Positions 2,217-63,585 of a DNA stretch of 64,000 nucleotides are shown piece after piece. The position numbers were made by a program, and so were the translations under genes. Source of the stretch: a virus. How positions within the stretch are numbered: position 1 is the first letter of the stretch; each line of letters opens with the position of its first letter. The stretch lies in IMG/VR virus record IMGVR_UViG_3300045988_123611; one strand, written 5' to 3'. The notes under the pieces are model-generated. The model did not search any database, was not told the DNA's origin, and worked only from the letters and a program-made list of their open reading frames with translations.

Positions 2217-2224
2217 ATTTAAAT

Positions 2225-2482: not shown

Positions 2483-2496
2483 ATAACTAAGAGGAT

Positions 2497-3272: not shown

Positions 3273-3284
3273 AAATAAAGAGTT

Positions 3285-3599: not shown

Positions 3600-3699
3600 G
3601 ACTTTTTAAAATCCTTACTTTATATATTTATTATATTATATTTTTTTTAAAAAATCAACTTTTCTCTTTTACCCAAATTTTTTTATTTTCTTTTTTCTT

Positions 3700-3750
3700 T
3701 CTTCATTTTATATAAATATTATATAATATTTTTTATAAAATGTCAATAAG
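3700..3750 (-). promoter_or_regulatory. Class-A promoter facing the tRNA-Asn and tRNA array
   Basis: RC reads TTGACATTTTATAAAAAATATTATATAAT. Same consensus as 2225-2280. Confidence 0.5.
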
Positions 3751-3925
3751 GTCTTTGAATTGGCATTAAATCATCTTCTGAAAGAAGCCACTTTTCACCA
3801 TGCTCATCAAGGACTTCAATCTGATAATTTAATACTCGAATGACAGTACATTTAAGATACTGTCTACGATAACAACGACCACGATAAGGGACAAAACAAT
3901 AAGAATTACCAACTTCAATATTCAT
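3743..3925 (-). CDS. small hypothetical protein (60 aa)
   Basis: GAAAGGAGAAAATAAATAATG RBS. Class-A promoter at 3935-3990. Confidence 0.5.
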   Translation of the reverse strand: MNIEVGNSYCFVPYRGRCYRRQYLKCTVIRVLNYQIEVLDEHGEKWLLSEDDLMPIQRPY

Positions 3926-4081
3926 TATTTATTTTCTCCTTTCTCAACTTTCTATATATATTATATTATATATTTTTAATAAAATCAAAAAAGTTCTTTT
4001 TGTTTAAGTAGATTTAACAAATTTACCACAATTTTAGTCGAAATCAGGAACACCGCGTGAAGGTATTGTGGATAGTTCCCG

Positions 4082-4153
4082 CAGGCGCCGTAGGATTCGA
4101 ACCCACACCTCAAGATTTTGGAGATCCGAATGCGACCGTTACACCAGACGCCT
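4082..4153 (-). tRNA. tRNA-Trp (CCA), no encoded 3' CCA
   Basis: Acceptor AGGCGTC/GGCGCCT. Anticodon loop CTCCAAA with U33 and A37. T loop GGGTTCGAATCC. Confidence 0.5.
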
Positions 4154-4164
4154 ATAAAACAAGA

Positions 4165-4250
4165 CCTTAACTTTGTCCGGAAAATGGATTTGAACCATTA
4201 ACTTAATCTTAAATGATTATGACCTAACCTTTAGTCTATTCTGGAAGTTA
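4165..4250 (-). ncRNA. tRNA-like gene with atypical anticodon arm. Perfect stem TAATC/GATTA but a 6-nt loop ATTTAA.
   Basis: T arm AATGG-TTCAAAT-CCATT, D arm GACT...GGTC, acceptor TCCAGAA/TTCCGGA. Loop geometry is non-canonical. Confidence 0.3.
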
Positions 4251-4324: not shown

Positions 4325-5641
4325 TTAATTCGTTATTAGTTTCCATGTAGTGTTATTTATTTTTACATATACTCTACTGTCAGGATGAGCCATATAATAA
4401 GTTAAGTATACTGAACCGGTAGTAGAAGAATTGCTATAAGGCTTAACATATATATAATAAGTAGTTCCAGCCGTAACTTTATAACAAATACCAAAATTAG
4501 CTCCAGTACCGCCATATTTTTTTGCATAATCATCATCGCTAGCTAAAATATTAGAAGAAGGCTATCCACTATCATTAAGAGAAGTAATACTTGATGTTAA
4601 ATAACCATAAGTGTCTATTGAAGAATTAGAATAAACAATAAAGTCCCCTGAAATAGTAGGAGTAAAAGAAAAATATCGACAAGTGCTTGGAGATAAAGTC
4701 CAAGAAGAGGTGTTCTATTTGTTATAAGTGGGAGCAGATATTGACACAGTAGAATAAGCCCAATTTGCTATAGACTAAATAGTAATTCTTATATAGCCAT
4801 TTCCACCATGACCTGTTTCAGATGACCCTGTTGGAGAAATAAATGAAGAATTACCTGCGATAGTTGATGCAGAAGTTAAATAATAGTTACTATTTAACAA
4901 ACAACCAGAAGGATAATTAGAAGCAGTGGATGAGGTATATACATAACCAGAACCTCCGCCACCATGATATTTTGTTCCACCCTGCATATTAGAGAGTGAA
5001 ACAATTCCACCATACCAGCCGCCTCCTCCAGCTCCATTTATATTATAAGAAGAACTGGATGAATATCCATTTCCTCCTACTCCAAAGCTATTTCCTGAAG
5101 TTTGTGTACTTAGACCTGGACTATTAGACCCTGCTACACTACTGGTGCCCCCACCGGCATCTCCGCTTTCTGTATTAGATCCCCAAGAGGTAGCTCCGCC
5201 TCCGCCGGCGACAATTACACGAGCGTAGAGAGAGTTTGATCCAATACGAATATCAGAAGCTCCTCCACCACCACCGCTTCGAGACATAGATCCGGAGACT
5301 CCTCCAGTACCGCCTCCATTAAATCCTCCTGTATAATCATTAGCAGAAGAAGAAATACAACCTCCTTTTCCACCAGTATATAAATATACCGTTTGAGAGG
5401 AAGAAAGAGTTAAAATTCCCGTTGAATATCCACCTTTTCCTCCTATAGCTCCCGAAGAAGCGTCAAAACTAGAGTTACTATTAGCACCATTTCCTCCCTA
5501 AGCCCCCCAACATTCTAATTTATAAGTACCTTTTGGAAGGGCAATATTTTTATAAGTTCCACTATAAGGACAATTTAATATATCTCCTGTTTTTAAAGAA
5601 GAAGAAGAAGGAATTGAAGAAGTTAAGTCGTAAGTTGCCAT
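4325..5641 (-). CDS. Gly-rich tail-fibre-like protein, copy 2. Four in-frame TAG codons.
   Basis: GGAGG RBS + ATG at 5641. Motifs KLECWGA(tag)GGNG, GGGGGASDIRIGSNSLYARVIVAGGGG and NYPSGCLLNSNYYLT are shared with copy 1. It is an ORF only if TAG is sense. Confidence 0.6.
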
Positions 5642-7035
5642 GTAGTTATTCCTCCTTTCCAAGTCGTATTATCTATTTTTGTGTATATCGCTTTAATGGG
5701 AGCATAAGTATTAGAATTGATTTTTACATTTAATGGTGATAATACAGTAATGCGAATATATCCCTACGTCCCTCCAGGATTAGTTCTATTATATCCCATT
5801 GTAGTAGAAGCATTTGTTAAATAATAGTTACTATTTAACAAACAACCAGAAGGATAATTAGAAGCGGTTGATGAAGTATATACATACCCAGAACCACCAC
5901 CATTATAAGTTCTATAATCAGCAGAGCTATCACTAACATTAGTAGAAGCACCACCACCATACCAGCCGCCACCACCACCACCGGGGCCATAATTATAATT
6001 AGTAGATCCACTAGCATCAGCACCTTGACCAAAAGATCCATTTGTTCCTGCTTTAGTCTATGTAGCCTTATATTCTTCAACCGCAGAGTTACCCGTCAAT
6101 CCGCCACCCTATTTAATAGAAGAATTACTTTCTCCCGCGCCACCACCACCACCACCGGCAACAATTACACGGGCATAAAGAGAGTCTTGACCTACGCGGA
6201 TATCGGAAGCTCCTCCGCCTCCTCCACCTGATGTGTAAGCAGAAGTATACCATCTAATCCTAGAGCTACCTCCTCCATTAAATCCACCATTAACTATCTT
6301 ACCTTTTTCACTATCACTTGAATAACTACCATGCCCCCCGGTGTATAAATAAATAGTGGTAGGAACTGGTAAAGAAAGAATTCCTATAGAATATCCTCCT
6401 GTTCCACCCCAATAACTATTTTTTGAACTCGCAGGAGTATAAGTAGTATTACTTTCCTATTTCTAAATCTAAAAATAAACTTCTTCATTATCCACGGAAT
6501 TTGAGCTATCTTTAGTATAAGTCATTACGATAGTAGATCCTGATGATAAAGAATAAGTGCCAGTAGTAGTAAGAGAACTTGATCCAGAAACCGCATTTAA
6601 AACTGTATTTCCTCCAACAGTTAAAGTGACTTTATCATAGCTTGCTTCAGTTTTATAATAATATGAAAATTTATAAGTCCCCCCAGAAGTACAAGTTAAT
6701 GTAGTTGTAGCAGTACTTGAATCTATTCCTCCGTTAGTAGCTATCCAGTCATTTCCGTCTTGACGAAAATAATAATTTGAATCATTAACAGTAAAATAAC
6801 TGGTCGCATTATGAGTTCCTATATATATCCATGAAGTTGTTGTTGATGAAGTTAAAGAACCAGAATAACCAATTCCGCCATAGCCACCCCAACATTCTAA
6901 TTGATAATTTCCCGCTGGAAGTTTTACTGGATTTACCGCTCCTGAATAGCTACTATTAATAATATCTCCTGGAATAAATTTAATAGAAGAATAATCTGTT
7001 ATAGAAGTTCCAGAAGGATTATAAGTATTTGGCAT
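5623..7035 (-). CDS. Gly-rich tail-fibre-like protein, copy 1. At least six in-frame TAG codons, three of them within 13 nt at 6457-6471.
   Basis: AGGAGG RBS + ATG at 7035. Motifs LPAGNYQLECWGGYGG and GGGGGASDIRVGQDSLYARVIVAGGGG. Overlaps copy 2 by 19 nt. Confidence 0.6.
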
Positions 7036-33699: not shown

Positions 33700-33895
33700 T
33701 TACGGGAAAAAATTTTCTTTACTTTTGTGCAACTTTTCTCTTGACAAAATTGGCGGGGCGTGATATAATGGTGAATTCGGCCCGCTTTGGGCGTTGGCGG
33801 GCCGGCCATTTTATCATAAAAGTTCTTGTTTGTCAATAGACAAAATAGACAAAAAAAACTACCCATTTTTGGGCAGTTTTTTTATTTTAGTCCAG
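33700..33895 (+). ncRNA. Plus-strand mini transcription unit, copy 1: promoter TTGACAAAATTGGCGGGGCGTGATATAAT, GC hairpin, ATTTTATCA, TTGTCAATAGACAA, terminator
   Basis: Elements in the same order and spacing as the other six copies. Confidence 0.5.
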
Positions 33896-34132
33896 CAGGT
33901 TAATCTCACCGGGAATTTTGAAAGAATCAGCGTCCAGTGTGGAATTGTAGTCCTCGGTAAAAAGGTCAATCATTCCACATTCCATGATGTAATTCTGCAC
34001 CGCCCGCTGAACATTTCTCCAAAGGTCAATCTTTCGGCTTTCCTCGCGGGCTTTTCTGGCTTCCTGTATCTGGATAATGAGTTCGTCCAGTTCCTCGTCG
34101 GTCATGTAATTCAAATCTAAATCCATTTTCAA
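33887..34132 (-). CDS. hypothetical protein (81 aa)
   Basis: ORF. Confidence 0.45.
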   Translation of the reverse strand: MKMDLDLNYMTDEELDELIIQIQEARKAREESRKIDLWRNVQRAVQNYIMECGMIDLFTEDYNSTLDADSFKIPGEINLLD

Positions 34133-36287: not shown

Positions 36288-36435
36288 TCTTGACAAAAAT
36301 GCTGGCAGGGTGTATAATGGTAAATTCCGGCCGTAGCGCGCGGAAACGGCCGGCCCATTATATCACATTCAAGGAATTTTGTCAATGGTCAAAGTAAACA
36401 AAAAAATCTCCCCATTTTTGGGGAGATTTTCTTTT
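36288..36435 (+). ncRNA. Plus-strand mini transcription unit, copy 2
   Basis: CTTGACAAAAATGCTGGCAGGGTGTATAAT, CCGGCCGTAGCGCGCGGAAACGGCCGG, CCATTATATCACATTCAAGGAATTTTGTCAATGG, terminator ATCTCCCCATTTTTGGGGAGAT. Confidence 0.5.
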
Positions 36436-37734: not shown

Positions 37735-37887
37735 CTATTGACAAATTGCTGAGATGGTGGTATAATGGAAATTCCGGCCGTGGCATGCGCAAACGGCCGG
37801 CCATTTTATCACACTATTGGATTTTTGTCAATAGGCAAAATAAATAAAATTTTGAGACGAGATTTGGTTATCTCGTCTCAAAATATT
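37735..37887 (+). ncRNA. Plus-strand mini transcription unit, copy 3
   Basis: ATTGACAAATTGCTGAGATGGTGGTATAAT, CCGGCCGTGGCATGCGCAAACGGCCGG, CCATTTTATCACAC, TTGTCAATAGGCAAAATA, terminator TTGAGACGAGAT...ATCTCGTCTCAA. Confidence 0.5.
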
Positions 37888-37888
37888 T

Positions 37889-38341
37889 TTAATGTTCGGA
37901 CACAATGCTGAGGTAGCGGACAATCATGTCCATTTCGCAACCCATGTCCTGCTGGTCGCAAACCGCATAACCCACAAGGTCGCCGTCCGCACAAATCGGG
38001 TAAACGCCATAAGTGTTATTGAAAACAAACGGCTTTCTTTTAAAATCCCACTGGGTCGAAACATAAGGCGGAAAGTTTTCCATACCCCGCAGTTTCACGG
38101 TAGTATCATAGATTGCGATGGGACGCAAACCGGAATTTGATGCCATTGTAATAGCGGTTCGCAGAGCTTCTTCGGTCAAAGAGCCAAGCACCAAATACCT
38201 CTTGAAGCAAACGCAGTCGTTGTCTTCAATGAAGATTTCGAGCGGGTCTCCCTCGCGAATCTTCAAAGTCCGGCGAATCTCTTTCGGGATAACCACACGT
38301 CCAAGGTCATCAATTCTGCGAACAATACCAGTAGCTTTCAT
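37889..38341 (-). CDS. AbrB/SpoVT-family transcriptional regulator (swapped-hairpin N-domain + C-terminal domain)
   Basis: N-terminus GIVRRIDDLGRVVIPKEIRRTLKIREGDPLEIF matches the AbrB/MazE/SpoVT DNA-binding fold. 150 aa, as in SpoVT-like proteins. Confidence 0.7.
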   Translation of the reverse strand: MKATGIVRRIDDLGRVVIPKEIRRTLKIREGDPLEIFIEDNDCVCFKRYLVLGSLTEEALRTAITMASNSGLRPIAIYDTTVKLRGMENFPPYVSTQWDFKRKPFVFNNTYGVYPICADGDLVGYAVCDQQDMGCEMDMIVRYLSIVSEH

Positions 38342-38405
38342 TTTAATTTTCCCCTTTCACTTGATACATTAAGTATAGCAGAATAAAAGGCTTTTGTCAA
38401 GCCCT

Positions 38406-38948
38406 TTATTCAAGATTTTTCCAAAAATAACCGTAAGCGCTCTTTCTTCGTCCTTTTATTACCGCGCTGATATTTGAACTGGCGCTGTCTGATAAATTGA
38501 GAAAATGAATGGCATCACGGACACTATCAAATTCTTTAATTGTTTCATGAGTGGTTTTATTACATATCGCAACTTTTACACAATAACCATTCTTCTTTCG
38601 TGTTTCAACAGATTTTAGAATTCTGTTATCATAATGATTATTCTCTTTATACGTGCACCATTCTAAATTTGAAACATTATTATTTAATTTATTACAATCC
38701 AAATGATTAACACAAGGTAAATTATTTGGATTTGGTATAAAAGTTAAAGCTATTAAACGATGAACTCGACAAGCTTTTTGCTAATTATTTTTACATAAAT
38801 TAACATAATAATATTTTTTCCCTTCTGGACCTCTTAGTTGCAAAGAAAGAAATTTCTTATGTTTCATACTCCAAATCTATCCGTCAGAAGTGGCTTGATA
38901 CCAACCTTCATAACCTGGCACATCTCTAAAAATTCTATTCACTTAGTT
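38406..38948 (-). CDS. HNH homing endonuclease with AP2-like C-terminal domain, two in-frame TAG, GTG start
   Basis: VPGYEGWYQATSDG(tag)IWS (NUMOD4-like). HRLIALTFIPNPNNLPCVNHLDCNKLNNNVSNLEWCTYKEN (HNH). ETIKEFDSVRDA...YGYFWK (AP2-like). Confidence 0.65.
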
Positions 38949-41894: not shown

Positions 41895-42050
41895 TTTTTG
41901 CTTGACAAATTGCTGGCCCTGTGATATAATGGAAATTCCGGGCGCGTGGGCCGTGCGCGCCCGGCCGAACAGTCATTGTTAAAATTTTAACAAAAATGAA
42001 ATAGAAAGGGCGCGGTAATTATCAGCTACCGCGCAAACCATAGTATGAAA
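41895..42050 (+). ncRNA. Plus-strand mini transcription unit, copy 5
   Basis: CTTGACAAATTGCTGGCCCTGTGATATAAT, CCGGGCGCGTGGGCCGTGCGCGCCCGG hairpin, terminator GCGCGGTAATTATCAGCTACCGCGC. Confidence 0.45.
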
Positions 42051-48927: not shown

Positions 48928-49983
48928 ATGATAAAACTTGATTATTCTTTACAAACTCCAGAAGAAAGAAATCAATTAGTCGAACAAATTTTGGCTGATA
49001 ATCCAGATCCGCCTGAAAAGTATTTAGAAATTTTAGCAGACTATTTGGTTCTTTGTATGGAGAAACAAGAAAAAAAGGAGAAAAAATTATTAACTGATAA
49101 TCGTATGGCTACAGTTAATAAGCGTGAGACTTCTTTTGAAGGTCTTGTTTCCCAACTCGAAAATGGCGAAGATGGAATTTATAATTTAATTACAGATAAT
49201 AGAAATACAATATTTCAACCACATATTACAATTACAAAAAAAGATTTAGAAGAGATACCAAGTTTAAATTAGTTAAGAGAAGCCATTAATGTTTGGGAGG
49301 CTAAATTAAAAGTAACAGAAGGTAAAGATGCTTTTGTTATTAAAAAGGCTCTTATTGAAATGCGTAAAGATTAGTATGTTATGAAAAATGCTTATCGTCG
49401 TCCAATAGTGCCTACAAAATTAACCAGATCAAAGTCTTATATTCCATTAGATGATAAAACATTTATTTTTGATGATGATGGTTTTCCCATTCCTGATGGA
49501 ATTAGTTTATTAAGACCTGAAATATGTTCTGCGGTTTTATGTAATTATTCCCGATTAAAGCAAGATAGTTGGGGTGAATACGATAAAGACTTATGGTATT
49601 TAATGAAGGATTTTGATAAACTTTGTGATAAAGCTTTAGCTAATTACCCTCTTTATGATAGAATCGTTGAATATAAAATTGATGGTTTACAAAATATTGA
49701 CATTCAAGAGAAAATACAAATGGAATTTGGTATTAAACATAGTCTTGAATATATTTCAAGTTTATGGCGTAATAAAATTCCAAAATTAATTGCTTCGACT
49801 GCGGAAGATGAATATTTAGATAATTATTATTTAAATGTTGAAAAAGGTAAATATAAAAAATGTAGTCGTTGTGGTAAAATAAAATTAGCTCATAATAAAT
49901 ATTTTAGTAAAAATAAAACAAGTAAAGATGGCTTTTATAGTATTTGTAAAAGTTGTCGAAATTCTAAGGCCAAAAAATCTTAA
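48928..49983 (+). CDS. hypothetical protein with C-terminal zinc ribbon, two in-frame TAG (~351 aa)
   Basis: ORF-track segments 48928-49272 and 49381-49983 are in the same frame and joined by TAG codons. C-terminal CSRCGK...CKSC. Confidence 0.5.
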
Positions 49984-50032
49984 TATTGTCCTTTTGTTTA
50001 TAATAAATAGTTGAAAGGAGAATATTTTATTT

Positions 50033-51220
50033 ATGGCTGAAACATATTATTGCGAAAAATGTAATCGCACAATGAATGGCACGGAATTTTATTCATCTAA
50101 TAATTTAGAAAAATATCCTAATGATGGTAAATTTCCTGTGTGCAAAAAATGTATGACAATGCACGTCGATAATTGGAATCCAGATACTTATTTATGGATT
50201 TTACAAGAAGCGGATGTTCCTTATGTTCCAGATGAATGGAATAAATTAATGGAAAAATATGGGCGCGATCCGCAGTCTATGACCGGTATGACAATTCTTG
50301 GACGTTATTTGTCAAAAATGAAACTCAAATAGTTTAAAGATTATCGTTGGAAAGATACAGAATTTTTATAGTAGATGGCGAATAATAAATTAGAACAAAC
50401 TATGAAGCGTCAAGGATATGATGCTCAATAGATTGCAACCGCTATTGAAAAAAGTTCTATTGCTATTCCAGAAGGAGAACTAAAAGAGCCGGTTTATGCT
50501 CCACCACCTAACGCCCCTACGGAAGATTATTTCGCACAATAGAGTGGTGAAGTGGAACAAGAATTAGACTTAACTGATGAAGACCGCACTTATTTAAGAC
50601 TTAAATGGGGCAAAACTTATAAACCTGAAGAATGGGTTAAGCTTGAATAGTTGTATGAAGAAATGATGGCTTCTTATGATATTCAAGGCGCCGGACATAA
50701 GGATACGCTAAAACTAATATGTAAGACATCTTTAAAGGCAAATCAATTGATCGATATTGGTGATATTGAAGGTTTCCAAAAGATGAGCAAAGTATACGAT
50801 AGCTTAATGAAGTCTGGTAAATTTACTGCTGCTCAAAACAAAGCAGAATCAGGTGAATTTGTTGATTCAATTGGTGAATTAATTGAATTGTGTGAAAAAG
50901 AAGGATATATTGAAAGATATTATGTTGAATAGCCACATGATAAAGTGGATTTAACTATTCAAGATATGCAACGTTATACTCGCACTCTTATTGAAGATGA
51001 AACTAATATCAGCACAATGGTAGAAAAAGCTTTGCGCGAAAATGCTAAAGAAGATGAAGAGAAAGCAAAGAACGCGGAAAGCGATATCGTTGATGATGCT
51101 GATTTAAGTATTGAAGAACTTGAAAAAACTATCAAAGATAGTGATTACGCAGATTTTGAGGAATTTAAAGAATAGGAATCTGCGCAAGATAATGAGTTCT
51201 TATAGGGTTTAGATAAATAA
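50033..51220 (+). CDS. hypothetical protein with N-terminal zinc ribbon and acidic C-terminus, ~9 in-frame TAG (~395 aa)
   Basis: Segments 50033-, 50651- and 50945- are in the same frame. TAATG overlap with the terminase start. Confidence 0.45.
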
Positions 51221-52958
51221 TGGCATTACAAGATTTACTGTAGTTAAGTGATAGCCGTAGAAAAATAGGTCTATCACCGGAGCGAGTAGAAGCGGTAATG
51301 CCCACTATCCGTAAATACGTTGCCTTTTGGAGAGAATATCCTGATTTATTTGTAGATTTTATGGTGCGAGGAAGACGCACTGAAATAAAAGATGGAGAAT
51401 TTAATTTTTATTTTTATTAGAGAGTATTTCTCCGTTCTGTTATGCGTTATTAGTATGTTTATGCAGTTTTTCCTCGTGCTTATTCTAAATCATTTTTGTC
51501 TGTTATGGCGTTAATGATTAGATGTATTTTATATCCTGGTGCGCATTTGTTTGTTACTTCTGGAGGTAAAGAACAAGGTGCTAGTATTCTTCATGATAAA
51601 GTTCAAGAAATATGTGAACTTATTCCAAGCTTTAATCGAGAAATTGATTGGAGTCGAGGAAAAACTCTTGAAGGAAAAGATAAAGTTAGATACGTATTTA
51701 AAAATGGTTCAGTTTTGGATAACCTCGCAGCTCGTGAAAGCACTCGTGGTCAACGTCGTCATGGTGGATTAATGGAAGAATGTGTTGGTATTGATGATGC
51801 CATTCTTCGTGAAGTTATTATTCCTGTTATGGCAATTTCCCGTAGAGCTAAAGATGGCACTACCAATGAACAAGAGCCATTAAATAAATCACAAATTTAT
51901 ATTACTACTGCTGGTTATAAGGGCACATTTCCTTATGATAGACTTATTGGTTTCTTAGTTCGTATGGTGACTTAGCCTGATCGTTGTATGGTATTAGGCG
52001 GAACATGGCGAACTCCTGTTGCAGTAGGATTACAAAGTAAAACATTTATTACTGACCAAAAGAATGAAGGAACTTATAATGAAGCTTCATTCGAACGTGA
52101 ATATGAATCTAAGTGGTCAGGAACTGTTGAAGATGCTTTCTTTAATGGAGAGCATTTTGATAGAAATAGAAAATTATTATAGCCTGAGTATGAAGCTTCT
52201 GGACGTGCGGGCGCGCAAGCTTATTATGTGCTTTCTGTAGATGTAGGTCGTAAAGGATGCGATTCAGTAGTTTGTGTATTTAAAGTAACACCACAAGCCC
52301 AAGGTCCAGCTATTAAGTCTTTAGTAAATATGTATACTATGTCAGATGATCATTTTGAAGATCAGGCTATTAAATTAAAGAAATTATTTTATAAATATAA
52401 AGCTAAAACTTTGGTTATAGATGGTAATGGTTTAGGTATTGGACTTTTGGATTATATGGTAAAATCTCAAAATGATGAAGATGGTGAATTTTTACCTGAT
52501 TTTGGTGTTGAGAATGATGATGATGGGTATTATAAAAAATATCGCACACCAAATACTCAATTTGATGCTATGTATGTTATTAAAGCAAATGCTCCAATAA
52601 ATACTGAATGTCATGCTAATGCTCAGACTCAATTACAGGCGGGTAAGGTAAAATTCTTAATAGATGAGAGAACAGCTAAAGAAAAACTATTAGCCACTCA
52701 AAAAGGTTCAAAAATGACTTCTGAACAAAGGGCAGATTATTTAAAACCATTTACTTTAACCTCCATATTAAAAGAAGAAATGATGAATTTACGCGAAGAA
52801 AACGAAGGTATTAATATTATCTTAAAATAGGCAAATCGCGGAATTCGTAAAGATAAATTTTCGGCTTTTGAATATGGATTATATTATTTAAAACTTGAAG
52901 AAGATAAAAAGAAAAAACGTAAAAAGTTTAATGCGGCTGATTGGTGCTTTTTAAATTA
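51220..52958 (+). CDS. terL: terminase large subunit, six in-frame TAG (~579 aa)
   Basis: N-terminal ATPase region with deviant Walker A FPRAYSKSF. C-terminal RNaseH-like nuclease region LSVDVGRKGCDSVVCV...FGVENDDDGYY. Size and position fit. Confidence 0.65.
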
Positions 52959-52971
52959 AGGAGGGTGGAAA

Positions 52972-53328
52972 ATGCGTGCTTCAAGAGGAGAAATTAAAAT
53001 TGAAGAAATCTTAGAAGAAGCAGGACTACCTTTTAAAATGGAATACATCTTTCCAGATTTAAAAAGCCCAAGCGGGCGTCCACTTCGTTTTGATTTTGTT
53101 ATATTTGATGATGATGGAAAAATTGATTTCATTATTGAGTATTAGGGAAAATAGCATTATGAAGCCAGTTCTAAATTTGGTGGAAAGCGCGGTTTATACC
53201 AGTAGCAATATAATGATAATCAAAAAAGACGTTTTTGCGCTTTACATGATTTTAGATTAATAGAGATTCCATATACCGACGAAAACCTTATTTCTTATGA
53301 TTATATAATGAAATTAGCAGGTTATTAA
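52972..53328 (+). CDS. DUF559/Vsr-like PD-(D/E)xK endonuclease-fold protein, three in-frame TAG (~118 aa)
   Basis: RPLRFDFVIFDDDGKIDFIIEY(tag)GK(tag)HY matches the DUF559 signature (R.DF...iIE.DG..H). Strong AAGGAGGGTGGAAA-ATG. Free-standing between terL and portal. Confidence 0.55.
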
Positions 53329-53341
53329 AGGAGGTGGAACT

Positions 53342-54991
53342 TTGGATACGCAAGATCGTAATGATTAGATTCACGCTAAAGGTTTTGATATTTATAATAG
53401 TCGTTATGAATATAATTATAATGACACTATGGATTATGCCAATAGAAAAATAAAAGTTGGCACAAAAACCTTAGATGATGCTATTTTAAAACTTGGTGAT
53501 TATAGTAAGATTAGATATCCAGGTCAAAATCGTATTATTACGAAACCTGATGTGCTTCGCGCACTAGCAGAAAGAGATTTAAATGCTTTGCGATATATTT
53601 CTAATCTTTATTATGATATAAGTGGTGTATATCAACGAGTTTGTAATTATGTTGCTTTTTTATACCGCTATGATTGGTATATTGCAGCCGAAACTTATGA
53701 TGATAATGTAAAAGAAGAAAAAGTTTTAAAAGATTTTTATAGAATGTTGAATTATTTTGATAATAGTTATATTAAAAAGATTTGCGGAGATATTGCTTTA
53801 CAAGTCGTTAAAAATGGATGCTATTATGGATATATAGTTCCTTCAGAGAAAAATCTAATTTTACAAGAATTGCCAGTTAGATATTGTAGAACACGTTATA
53901 GTGTAAATAATACCCCAGTTGTCGAATTTGATATGCGATTTTTTGATACTTTTAGAGATATGAATTACCGCTTAAAAGTATTAAAATTATTCCCAGAAGA
54001 ATTCGCTAAAGGTTATGTTTTATATAAGCAAGGAAAACTTGCTTTAGAAGAAGCGGTTGGATGCTAGCATACTGGTAGTTGGTATGTTCTTGAGCCAGAA
54101 AATTGTATTAAATTTAATATTAATAATAGTGATGTTCCTATTTTTGTAAATTCCATTCCTACTATTATGGATTTAGATGCAGCGCAAGATCTTGACCGCA
54201 AGAAACAAATGTAGAAGTTGCTTAAAATTTTAGTCCAAAAGCTCCCAATGGATAAAAATGGTGATTTGATATTTGATGTTGATGAAGCCAGAGATATCCA
54301 TAATAATGCCGTTTAGATGTTATAGAGGGCTATTGGAGTAGATGTTTTAACTACATTTACTGATGTAGATTCTATTGATATGTCTGATAAGAATACTACT
54401 ACAACGACAGATGATTTAGCTAAAGTTGAACGTAGCGTTTATAATTCGTTAGGTATTTCATAGAATTTATTTAATACTGATGGTAATATGGCTTTAGAAA
54501 AATCAGTGTTAAATGATGAATCTACAATAAGAAGTTTAATTTTATAGTTTAATATATTCTTTAATAGAATTATTGAAAAAAAGAGTAGTAATAAGAAATA
54601 TAATTTTAGATTTTATTTATTAGAAACTACTCAGAATAATTATCAAACACTTTCTAAAATGTATAAAGAACAAGCGCAAATGGGACAATCAAAACTATTG
54701 TCTTAGATTGCTCTTGGACATTCATAGAGTTTTATTCTTAATGCAGCTCATTTTGAAAATGAGATTTTACATTTAAGTGAAATTATGATTCCTCCTCTTA
54801 TGAGTTCTACTATGGGTAGTGAAGATATTTTGGGTTTAAAAGGTTCATCATCTAATAATAAAACTCAAAATAATTCAGGAAGTTCAGGCTCTGGAACTGC
54901 TAAAGCTTCTAATGGCGAGGCAGGACGTCCGGAAAAACCTGATGATTAGAAAAGTGAAAAAACTATTCAAAATAAAGAAGCAATGAAATAA
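53342..54991 (+). CDS. portal protein (putative), ~10 in-frame TAG (~549 aa, TTG start)
   Basis: GGAGGTGG RBS. Size and position immediately after terL and before scaffold. Confidence 0.5.
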
Positions 54992-55000
54992 GGAGGATTT

Positions 55001-56578
55001 ATGAAACATACAAGTATTAAATTAAATACACCTTGTGAGTTTATAAATATAACTCCTGTAAATCCTTTAATTTCTAAATGCCAAATTAAGGTTTGTTATG
55101 TAGATGATAAACCTAATCGTAACAAAAGCGTAATTACTAAAGATGTAGCGACTGAGATGGCTAATAGTCTTCCTGGCAGTCCTATTGTTGGCTTTTTTAA
55201 TGAGAATGCTGAAGATTTTGAAGAACATAATAGGATAATTGAATTATCTAATGGCGAATTTAGAATGAGAGATAATACTCGCCCTTATGGTTTTGTTGAT
55301 CTTGGAGCTAAAGTTTGGTTTTAGAAATTTTTGGATGATGGTGTTGCCGAACGCGAGTATTTAATGACTGAAGGTTATTTATGGACTGGTTAGTATCCTG
55401 AATGTAAACGTGTAATTGATAAAGGGAATAATCATTCTATGGAGCTTGATGAAAAAACATTAAATGCTACGTGGGCAAAAGATAGCAATGGAAAACCTTA
55501 GTTTTTTATTATAAATAAGGCAATTATTTCTAAACTTTGTATTTTGGGAGAAGAAAATGAACCTTGTTTTGAAGGCTCCCAAATCAATGTGAATTTTTCA
55601 TTCGATGATGGTTTTAAGAACACTTTGTTCTCCATGATGAATGAACTTAAAGAATTTATGAAAGAAGGAGGAGCCAAAGTGTTTACACAATACGCTGTTA
55701 ATATTGGCGACAATTTGTGGAATTCTCTTTATTCTTATATTGAGAATAAGTATCCTGTCGAACCAAAGAATTATTGTTCTGTTTATCGCATTGAAGGTGT
55801 TTGCGAAGATGGTGAACAAAAGTTTGCTGTTTTGAAGAATAAACAGGATGAAAAATACTATCGTATGGATTTTTCTCTTGAAGCAGAGAATTTCGTTCCT
55901 TCTGATACTTTGATTGAAGTAACTGATTATGCTCCTGCGGCAGAGCCTCAGTTTGCTCTTAATGCTGTAGAAGAATTTGAAAATGAGTATGCTTCAAAAA
56001 AGAAAGCAGAAGAGGACAAAAATAATAAATCAAATAATCCTGACGGTGAAAATAAATCAGAGGGTAATGATAATAAAAAGAACCCTGATAATGGGGATCC
56101 CTCTAATAAGTCTGATAAAGGCGACAACGGTGAGAATGATGATGATAAAAAGAAAAAGAAAAATTATTCTCTTGAGGATGTCGTTGAATATACTGAACTT
56201 AAAGCTCAGTATGATGAATTACAGACTAAATTCGCGGCTCTTGAAACTGAAAATAATAGCTTGAAAGAGCAAATTGCTCCACTTGCTGAATTTAAAAATG
56301 CCGCTGAAAAGAAAGATAAAGAAGATATGATTGCTAAATTCTATATGCTTTCTGATGAAGATAAGGCTGATGTTGTTGAAAATATTGATAAATATTCTCT
56401 TGATGATATTGAAGCTAAATTATCTGTTATTTGTGTTCGCAACAAGGTGAGTTTCGACCTTGACGAAAATAATAAGCCCAATGGTGCTACTACTTTTAAT
56501 TTGAACAATAATGGTTCAGAAGATGATGATATGCCCGCTTGGGTGAAGGCGGCTTTTGCTACCGCCAACAAAAATTAA
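55001..56578 (+). CDS. scaffolding protein (putative), three in-frame TAG
   Basis: KD-rich low-complexity linker. Coiled-coil ELKAQYDELQTKFAALETENNSLKEQIAPLAEF. Located between portal and capsid genes. Confidence 0.5.
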
Positions 56579-56595
56579 TAAGGAGGACATACTAA

Positions 56596-57513
56596 ATGTT
56601 TAAAGACTTTTTGAATAAGAATCTTCCTATTAAGTCTCAGGCAAAGTATGTTGAGTTTGGTTACGGTCAGGTCGAGCCTAATCACCTTTCCGCGCAAAGA
56701 AATGCTCAAATCTATGCTCAACTTCCCGCCAATAAAGACATTGAGATTCTTGAAAACGGTCAGTTTGTAAAGTATGACTATGCTGCTAATGGTAATGGTA
56801 TCGGCGAAGTCAACTTCACTGGCGAAGGTGAATGGATGCTCGTTTATAACGAGATTAAGCTTTATCGTGATCATTATGATGGCAGTAAGCAGTGGGACTG
56901 CGAATTTGCTATGATTAAAGATGACTATCAGGCTCGTGTTTATAGTCCTTATGATTGGGAGCATACCGAGGTTGAATATGGTGGTCGTTTCTGGAATGGT
57001 GTTGATGAAAAGGGTCAAACCTATAAATTAATCAATCAAACCGTTTCCGCAGATCAGGGCTTAAAGACTGTTACTATTGCTGGTCGTGTTTATGATGTTG
57101 ATGAAACCGGTAAGTTTACTTATGATGGTAATGAATATACTCTTGATAGTAATCATCAGGTTGCTAATGTTCCTGTAAAGTATTATTATGATAAACTTCT
57201 TACTGATGTTCCTGATATGTATGAAATGAATTGGACCAATGATCCATATCATAAGTTGGGCATCTATCATGAGAAGTTCATGGAATCTGGCACTTCTATG
57301 GTTCCTCGTGTATTTAAGACCATGATTGGTGATCTTTATACTACTAATATGATTAATGAAGAGACTCTTGCTGTTGGAGATAAGCTTTCTCCTTCTGCGG
57401 CTACAAAGGGTATTCTTAGCAAAACTGGCGACGATTCAATGACCTGGCAGGTTGTTAAAGTTTATACTATGCCTGATGGTCAAAAGGGCGTCAAAGTAAT
57501 GCGTATTAAGTAA
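56596..57513 (+). CDS. abundant virion protein (305 aa, no TAG). Capsid-associated, possibly the major capsid protein.
   Basis: AAGGAGG RBS. High-expression codon usage. No TAG. Confidence 0.45.
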   Translation: MFKDFLNKNLPIKSQAKYVEFGYGQVEPNHLSAQRNAQIYAQLPANKDIEILENGQFVKYDYAANGNGIGEVNFTGEGEWMLVYNEIKLYRDHYDGSKQWDCEFAMIKDDYQARVYSPYDWEHTEVEYGGRFWNGVDEKGQTYKLINQTVSADQGLKTVTIAGRVYDVDETGKFTYDGNEYTLDSNHQVANVPVKYYYDKLLTDVPDMYEMNWTNDPYHKLGIYHEKFMESGTSMVPRVFKTMIGDLYTTNMINEETLAVGDKLSPSAATKGILSKTGDDSMTWQVVKVYTMPDGQKGVKVMRIK

Positions 57514-57530
57514 GAAAGGAGAAAAGGATA

Positions 57531-58637
57531 ATGTTAGATAAAAATAATTTAATTGCTCTTATGAAGCAAGTTGCTAAGGCTGATCCTTCTGCTCCTGTTG
57601 CTTATAGTTATGAGGGAAAAAATCTTAGTTATGAAGCCTTAAATGAAACTCTTCGTAATGAAATGAATGAGTTGGCTGGTACTTACGCTCTTTATCGTGA
57701 AAATAAGAATCTTATTTTCTCTATGATTGAGCAGACTCTTGATGAGGTTCTTCCTAAGAAAGTTATTCAGCAATATGATCAGTTTGCTGAGGTTAAGACT
57801 TTCGCTCAGGGTGATAAGCCTATTTTCCGCCGTCCTCTTAATAATCGTGCTCGTGCTAAGCAGTTTGTAACTCGCGTTGGTCTTGCTGGTATTTATGAAG
57901 TCTTCAAGCTCGGACCTAAAGAGAATGAAGCCTTCGAGGTACGCACTAGCGCTATCGGCGGAGCTGCTCAGATTGGCTTCGAAGAATTCCTTGATGGTCG
58001 TGTTGATTTTGGTGAAGTAACCAAGATCATCATGGATGGTATGGATGAACTTATTTATAAAGAAGTCGCTGCTGCTCTTAGATCTTCTATCAATCAGCTT
58101 CCTCCTGCTAACCGCGTTGCGGCTGCCGGATTTGATGAAGCTGCTATGGATCGTTTGATCACTATTGCTTCTGCTTATGGTACTCCTACTATTTATTGTA
58201 CTTATGAGTTCGCTGTTAAGATGATTCCTCATGAGGCTTGGAGATATACTGAAGCTATGAAGAACGAGCTTTGGAATAATGGTCGTCTTGCCACTTACAA
58301 GGGTACTAAGGTTATTATTCTTGAGCAGGGCTTTGAAGATGAAACCAATACTCGTAAGGTTATTGATCCTGGTTATGCTTGGGTTATTCCTACGGGCGCT
58401 GATGGTAAGCCTGTAAAGATTGCTTTCGAAGGTGGCACTATTGTTGATGAATTCAACAATTATGATCGTTCTCGTGAGATTCAGGTTTACAAGAAGGTTG
58501 GCGTAGTTTGTATGCTTGCCAATAACATCTGTGCTTATGTTGATACTTCACTTCTCGGTCAGATGTATACTTGGAATTATGATGGAGTTACTGGTAAGGT
58601 TATCACTTATGATGGTCGCCTTGGCGGTACTGTCTAA
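57531..58637 (+). CDS. major capsid protein candidate (368 aa, no TAG)
   Basis: AAGGAGAAAAGGATA-ATG. Size typical of HK97-fold MCP. Strongly biased codons and no TAG. Confidence 0.45.
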   Translation: MLDKNNLIALMKQVAKADPSAPVAYSYEGKNLSYEALNETLRNEMNELAGTYALYRENKNLIFSMIEQTLDEVLPKKVIQQYDQFAEVKTFAQGDKPIFRRPLNNRARAKQFVTRVGLAGIYEVFKLGPKENEAFEVRTSAIGGAAQIGFEEFLDGRVDFGEVTKIIMDGMDELIYKEVAAALRSSINQLPPANRVAAAGFDEAAMDRLITIASAYGTPTIYCTYEFAVKMIPHEAWRYTEAMKNELWNNGRLATYKGTKVIILEQGFEDETNTRKVIDPGYAWVIPTGADGKPVKIAFEGGTIVDEFNNYDRSREIQVYKKVGVVCMLANNICAYVDTSLLGQMYTWNYDGVTGKVITYDGRLGGTV

Positions 58638-58723
58638 TTTAATATAAATTATTCCATGGGGAGAAGGGATTAAACTCCCTCTCCCCATATTTTTGTTTTA
58701 TGAGTAAAAGGAGAAATTGAATA

Positions 58724-59317
58724 ATGATTAATAATGAAGATATTTATAATGTAAAAAATAGAAGCACTAGTGTAGTTGTTTATACTATTCCTGATACTAA
58801 TTTGCGTCGTGAATTTGCGCCCGGTGAAACTAAGCGCATTCCATTTGGTGAGCTAGAGAAGTTAACTTATCAGGCGGGCGGCCGCGAATTAATTGCTAAT
58901 TTTTTACAAATTTTAGAGCCAGAAGTAACTCATACTCTTAATGTTCATACTGAACCTGAATATAATATGTCAGAGCAACAAGTTGCTGATTTAATTCTTA
59001 ATGGCTCATTAGATGCTTTTTTAGATGCTCTTGATTTTGCTCCTATTGGAATTATTGACTTAATCAAGAATTTATCTGTTAGCCTTCCTATTACTGATAT
59101 TAATAAGCGTAGAGCTTTGAAGGAAAAAACTGGGTTTGATGTTGATAAAGCTATTGCTAATGATATCGCTAGTAAAGAAGAAGATACTATTGTAGAGAAA
59201 GAACCCGCTGCTAAGCGTCGTGTAGTAAGAGAAGAACCTACTACTCAAGGTCGTCGCACAAGCGGTTCTGGATATAAAGTAATTAATAAAACCGAGGAAA
59301 CTTCCTCCAAGAAATAA
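58724..59317 (+). CDS. virion-associated hypothetical protein (197 aa)
   Basis: AAAGGAGAAATTGAATA-ATG. Basic C-terminal tail. Confidence 0.45.
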   Translation: MINNEDIYNVKNRSTSVVVYTIPDTNLRREFAPGETKRIPFGELEKLTYQAGGRELIANFLQILEPEVTHTLNVHTEPEYNMSEQQVADLILNGSLDAFLDALDFAPIGIIDLIKNLSVSLPITDINKRRALKEKTGFDVDKAIANDIASKEEDTIVEKEPAAKRRVVREEPTTQGRRTSGSGYKVINKTEETSSKK

Positions 59318-59336
59318 TTTATAGGAGGGCGATTAA

Positions 59337-59909
59337 GTGGGAACATTATTCTCAACTGTTTATAATCGCTTTCTTAACAAGGTTACTGATGATATGTATC
59401 TGGAATTAACTCCCGAAGATACTTTAAGAGATTTATAGAATCTTATAATAGATGCTATTCCTGGATTTGAATTTCCACGAAAAAATCTTTTAGATTATAA
59501 TTTAGATGTTGCTACTATTAATGAATCTGATGCTGCGCCTGATGATTTCATTGTAGGAACAGTATGGGGAGAGCTTCCAGAACCGGGTGAAGAACCTCAA
59601 GTTTTAGTTGATAGATCCAGTTTTAATTGTGATCTAACTGAAGAAGAAATTAATATTCTAGCTATTTTAATGATGTGTGGTTGGACGCAAAGACAAGTCA
59701 CTTCAATTGAGAACACTCGAATGAAATATAGTGGCTCTGATTTTAAATTTACTTCTTAGGCAAATCATTTATCTAAATTATTAAATTTACTAGGTGAATG
59801 CCAAAGATAGTCTCACCATATGTAGCGTTTATATAAACGTAGACGCTTAAATGACAAAGGTGAGTATGAATCTAATTGGGATGTATTTAAAAGTCGGTAT
59901 GATTACTAA
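59337..59909 (+). CDS. hypothetical structural protein, four in-frame TAG (GTG start)
   Basis: TAGGAGGGCGATTAA-GTG. Confidence 0.4.
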
Positions 59910-60207
59910 ATATAATTTTGATATTCCAGTAGAAAGTATAAAGGTCAATTGTTTGCGCTTAACCAATCAATTATGGAAATTAATTCCAATGCGCGAAAAT
60001 AATGAAGATTGGCATAAATAGCTAGAAACTGTTATAAATGAAATTGTGGGGTTTAGTGTGATTTTTAGCGCTGAACCCCTTTATTTATAGTTATTAAACA
60101 AACTTGAGGGATTGTAGAATCAAGATACTGATTTTAATTTTTATCGTAAGACTGTATTTGAAACGATTAGTCTTTTATAGGAGATAAATTATGGCATCAG
60201 GGTTTGA
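59899..60207 (+). CDS. hypothetical protein, four in-frame TAG (~103 aa)
   Basis: Overlapping ATG. Continuous frame through TAGs. Confidence 0.35.
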
Positions 60208-61255
60208 TTATAGTAGTAAGCAACCTTTTAGATTACAACAAGGTCGCTTAGGAATTTATGATAAGTCACCCTTTGAAGGTAGCCCTGTTGAAGGCGTTAA
60301 TTATACAGCGGTTCGGCTCGGTCAGATGGGCGGAAACCGCCAACAAGAACGTATGATTTTATCTAAGCGCAGAAGTTTAGATAGAGCAGTATGGAATTCA
60401 TACCAAGCCGCGGAAATTATTAAATAGGACGCGGAATATAAAAAGCCTATTAGATGTTTGATTAATCCTAATAAATTAAAATAGGATTATGATGATAAGA
60501 TTTTGTCTGTTGGAAATGAATATTAGTTTAAGCCAGGAGATATTTTTGAATGGTGTGGAACTAATACTTATTGGATTTGTTATCTTTAGGATTTGACTGA
60601 ATTAGCTTATTTTAGAGGGGATATTAGAAAATGCTCTTATAAAATAAATTGGGTAGATAATGGAGAGAAAAAATCTACTTATGCAGCAATTCGCGGTCCA
60701 GTAGAAACGAAAATTGATTATATTTAGAAACATGAAATTAGCGTGGATCGACCTAATTATTCATTAAATATTTTAATGCCTAAAAATAAAGATACTTTAA
60801 GTTATTTTAGACGTTATACTAAATTTTATTTAGATAGTTAGGATGAAGGAGATAATTTAATTTGTTGGCGCGTTGAAGCTGTAGATTCCATAGGCATGCC
60901 TGGCATTTTGGAAGTCAATGCAACTGAATATTATATTAATGAGTAGGAAGATAATTTAGACGATAAGACTGTTGGTTCTTTAATTACAGAACCAATTGAT
61001 CCAAATCCTACGACAACTGATATTATAGGGGAAACATTTATTTTTCCAAAGAAAACTTATACTTATTATTTTGATGGTAAAGCTGTTTTAGAATGGGAAA
61101 TAAAGAATAATAAAAAGTTGCCGGTTTCTTTAAAAATTATTAAAGAAGCAAAAAAGCCAACAGTTGAAATAAGTTGGACTTCTGGATATAGTGGATAGTT
61201 CGATTTATGTTATGGAGACTATAAGAAAACGATTGTAGTTCAATCATTATTTTAA
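60191..61255 (+). CDS. hypothetical structural protein, ~8 in-frame TAG (~354 aa)
   Basis: GGAGATAAATT-ATG. Continuous frame to TAA. Confidence 0.4.
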
Positions 61256-61270
61256 GGAGTAAAAGGTGTT

Positions 61271-61852
61271 ATGAAAATTAATGGTGTAAATTTACCTAAA
61301 TCAAGTTTTCTTTCTGTTGAAAAAGATTTAGAAATTATTGTAAAACATCTCTGTAAAAATGAGAGATTAAAGCGCTTATTGTATTATACAACAAAAGATG
61401 CTATTGATAAGCCAGATTTAAATGATGAACAAATGATTCAATTATTTAATAAAAATATTAAGTTAATTCCTAAGCTTTATGTTGATGGAAGTGTATTAAA
61501 TTATTTAATTATTAATTTTGATAATTTTACACAAAGCGGAAATCCTGAGTTTAGAGATAATATTGTTGAATTCGATATTATTTGTCATTTTGATCAATGG
61601 CATTTAAAAGATTATCAATTGCGCCCTTATCGTATCGCCGCAGAAATTGATAGCATGATAGATAAAACACATTTAACTGGTATTGGTAAGTTAGAATTTC
61701 TTGGTGCGAATCAAATTATTTTAACTGATGAATATGCTGGTTTGTGTCTTATGTATCAGGCAGTTCATGGCGAGGAAGATAAAAAATTTATGCCGAATCC
61801 TAATGACGAGGAAAGATTTATAGAAGATTTTAAAAAAAGAACTGAAGAATAA
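61271..61852 (+). CDS. hypothetical protein (193 aa, no TAG)
   Basis: AAGGAGTAAAAGGTGTT-ATG. Confidence 0.5.
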   Translation: MKINGVNLPKSSFLSVEKDLEIIVKHLCKNERLKRLLYYTTKDAIDKPDLNDEQMIQLFNKNIKLIPKLYVDGSVLNYLIINFDNFTQSGNPEFRDNIVEFDIICHFDQWHLKDYQLRPYRIAAEIDSMIDKTHLTGIGKLEFLGANQIILTDEYAGLCLMYQAVHGEEDKKFMPNPNDEERFIEDFKKRTEE

Positions 61853-62577
61853 TGGATATTAGACTTGGTTTAATGACAGGTATTGATTTACCAATACCTG
61901 AATTAGAAGTCACTATTCATTAGCCATCTATAAAAGAAATTTCTTTTATAGGTGAAAAAGATCTTTTCTTGGGGATTTAGTGCTTATGTATTGATAAAAA
62001 CATAATAGAGAATTCGGGCGAAAGTCTTTTAAGAGAAACAAATAATTTTTAGATATTTATGACAATGATGAAAGAAAAAGAGATGGCCGATAAAAAACAA
62101 GCATCTATATAGGTTCTTACATTATTGTTTCCAAAGCAAAATGTTTTATTTACCCCGAGGTCAATTGTTTTACAAGGTGACTCACAAATAATGATTGACG
62201 AAAGCAATTTTAATATATTATAGGAATATATTAAAGAAATATTTTGTTTTAAATCTAATGCTTCGCAAGAAATGGGATTCAATCCTGGAAATGCGGCCGC
62301 GAAAAAGATAGCCGATAAATTAATGCGAGGTAGACAACGTGTCGCTGAATTAAACGGCACGGCTAATGCTAGTATATTTAGTTAGTATCTTTCAATGCTT
62401 ACTATAGGTCTTGATTCAATGTCTTTACAGGATTTAATGGATTTAACAATGTTCCAACTCTATGACCTTGTTGAAAGATATCAACTTTATATTAATTGGG
62501 ATATTGATATCCGGTCTAGATTAGCAGGCGCGAAGCCTGATAATAAGCCGGATAACTGGATGAAAAATATCCATTAA
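61852..62577 (+). CDS. hypothetical protein, six in-frame TAG (~241 aa). Candidate chaperone, since it sits before the abundant tail/virion gene.
   Basis: TAATG overlap start. Continuous frame. Confidence 0.4.
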
Positions 62578-62601: not shown

Positions 62602-63585
62602 ATGAAATTTGGTGTACGCGAAATTTGCGATGTCGTTTTAAAGGCAAAGGCTAATCAAAAGATTGGTAATAAGCAATTTTATAAGAACGAGCCAGTTATT
62701 TATTTCGACACTTTAAAGACTTCCAGTATGGAAGGCGCTGCTACCACCGTATACGCACAGGGCGGTCGTGGTAATACTAACTTAGTCGCATGGGAAGGCG
62801 AGCGTACTGTTACCTTCACAATGGAAGATGCTCTTATTTCTCCTGAAGGTTTCATGATTCTTTCCGGTGCTGGTCTTGTTGAGGCTTCTGCTAACAATAA
62901 GATTAAGCAACATATTACTCAAACTGTTGATAAGACTAAAGACATTGTCCCTGCTAATACTGAAAAAGACATTAAAACTGATGGATTAATTATTCCTGTC
63001 TCTTATGCCCCTTATCTTGATAATGAACATAAAGATGACGATTATGTTTATGTTTTCTTCATGAAGGATGGCGAAATTATTTCTGAGCCTTATTTAGCAC
63101 ATGAAGGAGTTACCACTGGAGACACTGGTTTTAGTGTTACCGTAAAGGGATTTGCTCGTTCTACTGGAGCGGCTTATACTACTAACGATTTAGAGAATGA
63201 TTATGCTAAATGCGACTCTGTAATGATTGATTATTACACTGAGCGTGAATCTGGTGCTAAGCAGATTGAAATTACTGCTGATAAATTTGGTGGTAACTAT
63301 TATCTTGAAGCTTCTACTTTATTCCGTAATCAAGATGGTGTAGATATGCCTGCTGAATTTATTATTCCTAACTGTAAGATTCAGTCCAACTTTAACTTTA
63401 CAATGGCTTCTTCTGGTGATCCTTCCACTTTCACCTTTACTATGGATGCATTCCCTGACTATACTCGTTTCGATCATAGTAAGAAAGTTTTGGCTGCTAT
63501 TCAGATTATTGAAGAAGACGAAACTGTTGACAACGATATTCGTAGAAAGACCGCTGCTAATAGCACCACTGTTATTGGAGGCTAA
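62602..63585 (+). CDS. abundant virion protein (327 aa, no TAG). Candidate major tail/tube protein.
   Basis: AAGGAGGAAAAAAACCT-ATG. High-expression codon usage. Confidence 0.45.
   Translation: MKFGVREICDVVLKAKANQKIGNKQFYKNEPVIYFDTLKTSSMEGAATTVYAQGGRGNTNLVAWEGERTVTFTMEDALISPEGFMILSGAGLVEASANNKIKQHITQTVDKTKDIVPANTEKDIKTDGLIIPVSYAPYLDNEHKDDDYVYVFFMKDGEIISEPYLAHEGVTTGDTGFSVTVKGFARSTGAAYTTNDLENDYAKCDSVMIDYYTERESGAKQIEITADKFGGNYYLEASTLFRNQDGVDMPAEFIIPNCKIQSNFNFTMASSGDPSTFTFTMDAFPDYTRFDHSKKVLAAIQIIEEDETVDNDIRRKTAANSTTVIGG

Follow-up and report, generated by a model that had tools for sequence, protein, structure and literature searches.

SpoVT is a late forespore regulator that acts on genes of the sigma-G regulon and whose natural partner is sigma-G, and AbrB is a transition-state regulator. 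To our knowledge, experimental tests of phage interference with sporulation have concerned sigma factors only; the Spo0A, SpoVT and AbrB homologues of phages are known from catalogues. In bacterial SpoVT, the N-terminal domain is conserved at ~95% and the C-terminal domain at 20–30%, and the protein has no consensus binding site (PMC5061766). SpoVT assembles as a dimer of dimers, and some GAF domains are used solely for dimerization (PMC11237016). With regard to phages, it has been reported by Schwartz et al. (mBio 2023) that spoVT (K04769) and abrB are among the genes overrepresented in phages that infect spore formers, gut viromes included, and that phage copies of spo0A lack the sensor (receiver) domain (PMC10294663). 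Phage-borne SpoVT/AbrB homologues were catalogued in gut viromes in that study and by Bernard et al. (bioRxiv 10.1101/2021.07.15.452460), and both reports treat spoVT at the catalogue level, without a shortened architecture, lineage-wide conservation or a transcription unit.

We analyzed a 64,000-nucleotide stretch of the IMG/VR record IMGVR_UViG_3300045988_123611 (referred to as the window), which carries a 150-aa SpoVT-like gene on its minus strand (37889..38341). This gene is almost certainly a shortened, phage-specific SpoVT paralogue. Compared with B. subtilis SpoVT (2w1t, 2w1r; TIGR02851), the encoded protein keeps a near-invariant N-terminal domain and is shorter, since SpoVT proteins in 80 bacterial genomes were 175–188 aa long. 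SpoVT is encoded on the chromosomes of endospore formers and is expressed in the forespore in a sigma-G-dependent manner, whereas the short gene is phage-borne and preceded by a sigma-A-type early promoter. AbrB and Abh have the same DNA-binding fold and key arginines; however, they are only ~95 aa long, with a small C-terminal multimerization domain and no GAF domain, whereas the phage protein has a GAF-like one. MazE-type antitoxins (PHROG 4681) also share the swapped-hairpin fold, but the phage protein has neither a toxin partner nor an operon, and its C-terminus is a folded GAF-like domain. Its trimmed GAF parallels the loss of the sensor domain in phage spo0A (PMC10294663).

The identification of such proteins as SpoVT-type is not new, as the name is already present in public annotation. 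GenBank entry DAU68643.1 (“MAG TPA: stage V sporulation protein T [Caudoviricetes sp.]”), whose name is an automatic annotation only, is 150 aa long and belongs to the same 90%-identity cluster, and the exact protein bears the JGI label “AbrB family looped-hinge helix DNA binding protein”. We found no literature description of the shortened GAF architecture common to this phage-only clade, of the status of the gene as a core early gene in a large gut siphovirus lineage, or of its stand-alone transcription unit.

Domain anatomy of the short SpoVT-like protein

The coding sequence starts with ATG, ends with TAA and contains no in-frame TAG. [quoted passage not shown] Pfam MazE_antitoxin (PF04014) matched the protein with an E value of 3.5e-10 (40.1 bits, cut-off 24.7) and the AbrB-family domain TIGR01439 with 1.2e-11 (44.2 bits, cut-off 28.3). 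In a search of PDB sequences, SpoVT (2w1t) was the top match (E 5e-22), and 36 of the first 37 residues of the phage protein were identical to it; AbrB (E 1e-12) and Abh (E 5e-9) aligned with residues 1–49. Similarly, the domain was identical at 35 of 37 positions to the consensus of 80 bacterial SpoVTs. Arginines R8, R9, R15, R23 and R24 were invariant in a wide-family alignment of 13 sequences, and R8, R15, R23 and R24 (AbrB numbering) are residues which we take to be the DNA-contact arginines on the basis of established knowledge of AbrB. The AlphaFold2 monomer model had pLDDT values of 56–72 in this domain, as expected for one half of an obligate dimer. With similarity far beyond chance, the protein is thus, as judged from its sequence, a SpoVT-like member of the AbrB/SpoVT family.

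A sequence-only reading of this locus, which had quoted the peptide IVRRIDDLGRVVIPKEIRRTLKIREGDPLEIF (residues 6–37 of the protein), had proposed a phage-encoded AbrB/SpoVT-family transition-state regulator. The phage origin and the family were borne out by the PF04014, TIGR01439 and PDB matches together with the phage structural genes of the window, and the swapped-hairpin assignment could be narrowed to the SpoVT type by the 36/37 identity to 2w1t. The label of transition-state regulator was wrong, since the protein is closer to SpoVT than to AbrB (E 5e-22 vs 1e-12) and AbrB matched residues 1–49 only.

The remainder of the protein (aa 51–150; 37892..38191, minus strand) was analyzed by profile–profile and fold comparison, which support its assignment as a trimmed GAF domain of the SpoVT type. 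When profiles restricted to the C-terminal part were built from 127 phage-family sequences and 80 bacterial SpoVTs, hhalign aligned them over 82 columns with a probability of 92.3% (E 5.5e-7). The AlphaFold2 model was predicted with pLDDT 85–93 over this domain, in the order helix, five strands, helix, and Foldseek retrieved full-length SpoVT (2w1t_A) as the best match (E 1.4e-9), followed by many GAF domains. An additional SpoVT-like C-terminal domain, as had been suggested, was therefore supported by hhalign and Foldseek, although the direct Pfam scan was blank: of the two Pfam families named for this purpose, MazE_antitoxin was found as described above, and SpoVT_C gave no match up to an E value of 1. 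Compared with bacterial SpoVTs, ~20 aa are missing from the middle of the GAF core (after F107) and ~8 aa before the last helix, so that the first helix, five strands and last helix are retained and ~28 residues of the sensor core are lost. A search of 1.84 billion representative proteins with the C-terminal domain alone yielded only 17 sequences, of which the full-length ones were 146–153 aa long and had the same N-terminal domain; canonical SpoVT was not reached in this search. The shortened GAF thus represents a natural deletion series, which tells which part of the SpoVT sensor is dispensable under continued selection.

TIGR02851 (spore_V_T) matched the phage protein with an E value of 6.7e-27 over model positions 1–66 of 180 only, and the score of 94.5 bits was below the equivalog cut-off of 235.9 bits. 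Being 28 aa shorter, below this cut-off and behind a sigma-A-type early promoter, the gene does not qualify, on these features of its sequence, as a SpoVT orthologue.

Four cysteines (C43, C45, C128 and C135) were invariant or nearly so in the core family of 149–150-aa proteins and were not conserved across the wider family of short SpoVTs. They may form a metal or redox site.

Phage lineage and conservation of the gene

With a portal, a large terminase, a capsid-like protein and a structural protein, the window is a bona fide phage sequence. The ORF at 62602–63585 matched phrog_2729 (virion structural protein), and the ORF at 57531–58637 matched phrog_4088 and aligned with the annotated major capsid protein gene of Bacillus phage vB_BsuS_PJN02. 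The capsid-like and structural ORFs had relatives in phAss-1 (50% and 47% identity, respectively), in 134–142-kb Enterococcus phages (~40%) and in Bacillus phages, and relatives of the structural protein were also present in Lactococcus, Brevibacillus and Clostridium phages. Other late genes emerged once TAG was translated. When TAG was treated as a sense codon, the plus-strand region 48928–62577 became a series of long, tightly packed ORFs matching full-length phage profiles, including the portal (53342–54991, plus strand; 10 TAG codons; phrog_2739, E 3e-81), the large terminase (51220–52959, plus strand; 6 TAG codons) and an ORF matching the full length of phrog_3313 (55001–56578, plus strand; 3 TAG codons). 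These matches indicate that the phage translates TAG as sense in its late genes. The HNH gene adjoining the SpoVT-like gene (38406–38942, minus strand) has in-frame TAGs at 38877–79 and 38781–83; with TAG read as Q, it encodes a complete 178-aa endonuclease with NUMOD4, HNH_3 and I-HmuI-NUMOD domains. TAG recoding is known for relatives of phAss-1, a group predicted to infect Clostridia (PMC10607447). The source phage is a ~190-kb Firmicutes siphovirus related to phAss-1.

A Firmicutes host, which had been proposed earlier from the SpoVT-like gene itself, is well supported by its fit with both the phage relatives and the sigma-A-type promoters with extended −10 elements, and an endospore-forming host is plausible, as is the reprogramming of host development that had been suggested. 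Among phages with SpoVT/AbrB matches, the named hosts were nearly all endospore formers. A Pfam scan of 70 other ORFs of the window for sporulation regulators matched four families, none of them related to sporulation, and Megablast of positions 30–46 kb against known phages returned a 77-bp HNH match only.

Short versions of the protein (133–158 aa) were found at at least 43 IMG/VR loci, mostly on viral contigs of 85–211 kb, with identities to the window protein from 99% down to 37%. The contigs of the gene family clustered at 181–198 kb and originated from human gut metagenomes. Exact copies of the 150-aa protein occurred on 23 metagenome contigs, the protein is indexed in 44 collection blocks, and its 90%-identity cluster had 900 members. 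When 185,579 bacterial species genomes were searched with family-specific peptides, no close relative was found; only canonical SpoVTs were returned (n = 80, all 175–188 aa, 36–66% identity), so that there was no sign of a prophage copy. All short versions carried the same two deletions relative to SpoVT, which suggests that the gene was captured once, long ago, and has since diverged along with the phage lineage. At the nucleotide level, similarity to bacterial spoVT was confined to approximately the first 110 nt, at 70–85%, the best matches being Paenibacillus and gut Clostridia loci. This limited similarity speaks against a recent transfer from a host, and a recent bacterial donor was rejected on the same ground.

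Both domains are under purifying selection, with dN/dS values between the window gene and its relatives of 0.07–0.24 overall and below 1 in each domain. Among 40 distinct short phage versions, the N-terminal domain was identical to the bacterial SpoVT consensus at 27–35 of 37 positions (mean 89%), and it stayed conserved even where the C-terminal domain was only 27–30% identical to that of the window protein, which resembles the situation in bacterial SpoVT described above. In 31–32 of 44 loci, a 126-aa protein and a 258-aa DEDDh-type exonuclease were encoded 1–4.5 kb downstream of the gene, and this synteny with the exonuclease included distant phages with 27–40% identity in the C-terminal domain. 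The conserved position, distant loci included, indicates that the SpoVT-like gene is a core syntenic early gene of the lineage. The exonuclease is common to the Enterococcus relatives (39%) and phAss-1 (29%), and in phages EF1, VRE9 and H1, whose Enterococcus hosts do not sporulate, the capsid-like protein, the structural protein and the exonuclease were all present at ~39–40% identity. No SpoVT/AbrB match was detected in EF1, VRE9, H1 or phAss-1 at E ≤ 1e-5.

In some related phages, a second SpoVT/AbrB-type paralogue was located less than 5 kb from the first (at +4717 in L106 and −1031 in L117). A “family” that arose from clustering of neighboring genes was discarded as an artefact of spurious ORFs reading through a repeated promoter cassette.

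Transcription unit and candidate roles

The gene is flanked by its own transcription signals. A ribosome-binding site, AAAGGGGA, was read from the sequence 8 nt before the ATG (38350..38357, minus strand) and is kept as aaaggggaaaattaaaATG in close relatives. Upstream of it lies a predicted strong sigma-A-type promoter, TTGACA-17 nt-TATACT with a TG extended −10 (38372..38400, minus strand; 11/12 matches), and equivalent promoters of the form TTGACA-17-TGnTATAAT precede most family members. The −35 box is located in the loop of an 11-bp hairpin (38381..38411, minus strand) which overlaps the stop codon of the upstream HNH gene, an arrangement that we read as a terminator fused to a promoter. 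On the other side, a bidirectional intrinsic terminator with a 15-bp stem (37849..37884, both strands) is predicted 5 nt past the stop codon. With a promoter and a terminator of its own, the SpoVT-like gene is monocistronic. Sigma-G-type elements, as quoted in PMC11237016, were compared by eye with the upstream region and gave a poor match (GAATAAAGG-15-TTTATT), and the short gene is probably not sigma-G dependent.

This promoter is one of many. The minus strand of the window contains 37 TTGACA-N17-TAnnnT sites, 30 of them within the 18 kb between 30.6 and 48.8 kb, that is, about one per small ORF, and almost none of these small ORFs had a Pfam match. The extended motif of the minus-strand promoters, CTATTGACAA, which represents the extended −35 element of early promoters, occurred 25 times vs 6.4 expected. 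Window-wide, 9 of the 37 sites are terminator–promoter fusions in which a hairpin of at least 6 bp carries the −35 box in its loop; in these, the 3′ arm of the hairpin abuts the −10 box, the inner stem is GGGC/GCCC, and the outer stems vary in sequence with pairing kept. Because the stem sequences differ between promoters, the hairpins behave as RNA terminators and not as a common operator. The 30.6–48.8 kb interval resembles an early region of the host-takeover type, transcribed with the host primary sigma factor.

It had also been suggested that the regulator acts on palindromes of small plus-strand units. This was not supported: exact TTGTC-N4-GACAA occurred once in 64 kb (0.07 expected; 6 of 100 shuffles reached one site), the underlying motif (CTATTGACAA) is a promoter −35 element, and more distant phages keep the gene but lack the plus-strand mini units. 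As a single site within a promoter −35 region, TTGTC-N4-GACAA was rejected as an operator. AbrB-type TGGNA-N4/5-TGGNA pairs were not enriched (1 vs 2.2 and 2 vs 1.7 expected), and no repeated operator-like palindrome associated with the SpoVT-like gene was found.

Our tentatively preferred reading is a host-directed role, in which the phage protein imitates or overrides SpoVT/AbrB-type control of sporulation and stationary-phase genes. It is favored because the N-terminal domain is so tightly conserved, because the gene is absent from relatives that infect non-sporulating hosts, and because trimmed-sensor regulators occur in gut phages. The N-terminal domain is held as tightly as in bacterial SpoVT, which suggests that DNA targets or partners constrain it in the same way; if only phage operators had to be matched, nothing would prevent a regulator from drifting, as happened in AbrB and Abh. 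In this scheme, host RNA polymerase would transcribe the gene immediately after infection, and the protein would assemble, like SpoVT, as a dimer of dimers and bind DNA with SpoVT-like specificity. The trimmed GAF would serve for oligomerization and not for ligand sensing, which would make the activity independent of sigma-G timing and of the SpoVT signal. The protein could then impose or override SpoVT/AbrB-type control on host sporulation and stationary-phase genes, possibly also mixing with host SpoVT subunits, and an infected cell, or a cell entering sporulation, would be kept favorable for the phage. Should host genes be its target, the protein would offer a concrete and widespread molecular handle with which to ask whether late spore development is subject to interference by gut phages. 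A more specific version is doubtful: that in TAG-recoding gut siphoviruses (~100–200 kb) a signal-blind “mini-SpoVT” blocks or redirects spore maturation in gut Clostridia, through SpoVT/AbrB targets or subunit mixing. If it is true, these phages would directly control spore formation and hence the transmission of gut commensals, and the deletions would define the part of GAF dispensable for assembly, which would be informative on the SpoVT ligand.

Several observations stand against a host-directed role. A core syntenic early gene, as opposed to a sporadic accessory one, fits the phage's own program equally well; the sigma-A early promoter implies expression in vegetative cells, which lack sigma-G; the conservation of the N-terminal domain may simply come from an intertwined dimer fold that tolerates few changes; the Enterococcus phages without the gene represent one clade only; and a sporulating host is assumed. 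It is accordingly possible, if somewhat less probable, that the protein is the phage's own temporal regulator, a SpoVT scaffold captured long ago that now binds phage DNA without a role in sporulation, for example shutting off or retuning the ~30 early sigma-A promoters or helping to switch on middle or late genes. Such a function is consistent with a core gene of conserved position near the 126-aa protein and the exonuclease (31–32 of 44 loci), embedded in a promoter-dense early region (30 sites in 18 kb) with the common CTATTGACAA motif, with the second paralogue in some relatives, and with the absence of recent host transfer (similarity over ~110 nt only). However, the N-terminal domain differs from host SpoVT no more than bacterial orthologues differ among themselves, a closeness which phage operators alone need not require, and related Enterococcus phages manage without a SpoVT-like gene. 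The absence of a shared operator-like motif (TTGTC-N4-GACAA once, TGGNA pairs unenriched, hairpins diverse) also argues against it, although this is weak evidence. If phage-directed, the gene would be nothing more unusual than a host DNA-binding scaffold captured by a phage.

Two other roles appear less likely than a host-directed or a phage-directed regulator. The near identity of the N-terminal domain to host SpoVT raises the prospect that the protein acts mainly as a dominant-negative subunit, poisoning host SpoVT/AbrB-type proteins in mixed oligomers through its swapped-hairpin domain and not by productive DNA binding; AbrB and Abh, which can bind as heteromers (PMC3025583), would be a precedent, and the altered C-terminal domain would change the tetramer geometry. 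We regard this as improbable: R8, R9, R15, R23 and R24 are all invariant, arguing for retained DNA binding, and early vegetative expression precedes the synthesis of host SpoVT. A type II antitoxin with a MazE/AbrB fold is the reading of the PHROG annotation, as the protein matched phrog_4681 (E 1.5e-19) and phrog_36746 (E 2.3e-9), both described as “antitoxin from a toxin-antitoxin system”, and the name of the Pfam family, MazE_antitoxin, points the same way. The anatomy of the gene makes this extremely unlikely and effectively rules it out: it is a monocistronic unit between a promoter and a terminator of its own; its neighbors, which vary between relatives, are the HNH homing endonuclease and a HAD-like phosphatase and not a toxin; and the C-terminal part folds as a GAF-like domain (pLDDT 85–93) and is not a disordered toxin-binding tail.

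Additional features of the window

The plus-strand late block opens with a 351-aa gene (48928–49983, plus strand) that contains 2 in-frame TAGs and matched phrog_5767 (“sigma factor”) with an E value of 2e-54. A Pfam search of this ORF for sigma domains gave none, and a PDB sequence search gave nothing significant. If its synthesis depends on TAG suppression, such a phage sigma factor could serve as a timing device. Twelve tRNA genes are located at 318–4245 on the minus strand (Asn ×2, Met ×2, Glu ×2, Leu ×2, Thr, Ala, Trp and one odd call); a CTA (suppressor) anticodon was absent among them, so that the suppressor must sit elsewhere in the genome. Besides, two adjacent glycine-rich proteins of ~445–470 aa, with 4 and 6 in-frame TAGs, are encoded at 4325–7035 (minus strand), and one of them has an ALK_LTK_GRD domain (E 2.4e-25). 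These may be fiber or receptor-binding proteins on the “early” strand.

The plus-strand mini units mentioned above are real: four repeated cassettes run antisense to the gene flow (33741–33900, 36290–36430, 37738–37884 and 41902–42040, plus strand). Every cassette combines a perfect TTGACA-17-TATAAT promoter with a GC-rich 5′ hairpin (CCGGCCG...CGGCCGG) and a terminator, giving a predicted RNA of ~110 nt. Rfam scanning of the cassettes found no family at the gathering threshold, and their signature was confined to close relatives. Three of the four oppose a minus-strand promoter (CTATTGACAA-17-GATAAAAT), and with the promoters facing each other, cassette and minus-strand transcripts would overlap across the hairpin. 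From this arrangement, we suspect a switch that controls the downstream gene by antisense action or transcription interference.

The early region is also a compositional mosaic. G+C content is 44–46% at 32–38 kb and 47.5% in the SpoVT-like gene, compared with 30% in the adjoining HNH gene and 27–38% in most of the remaining window.
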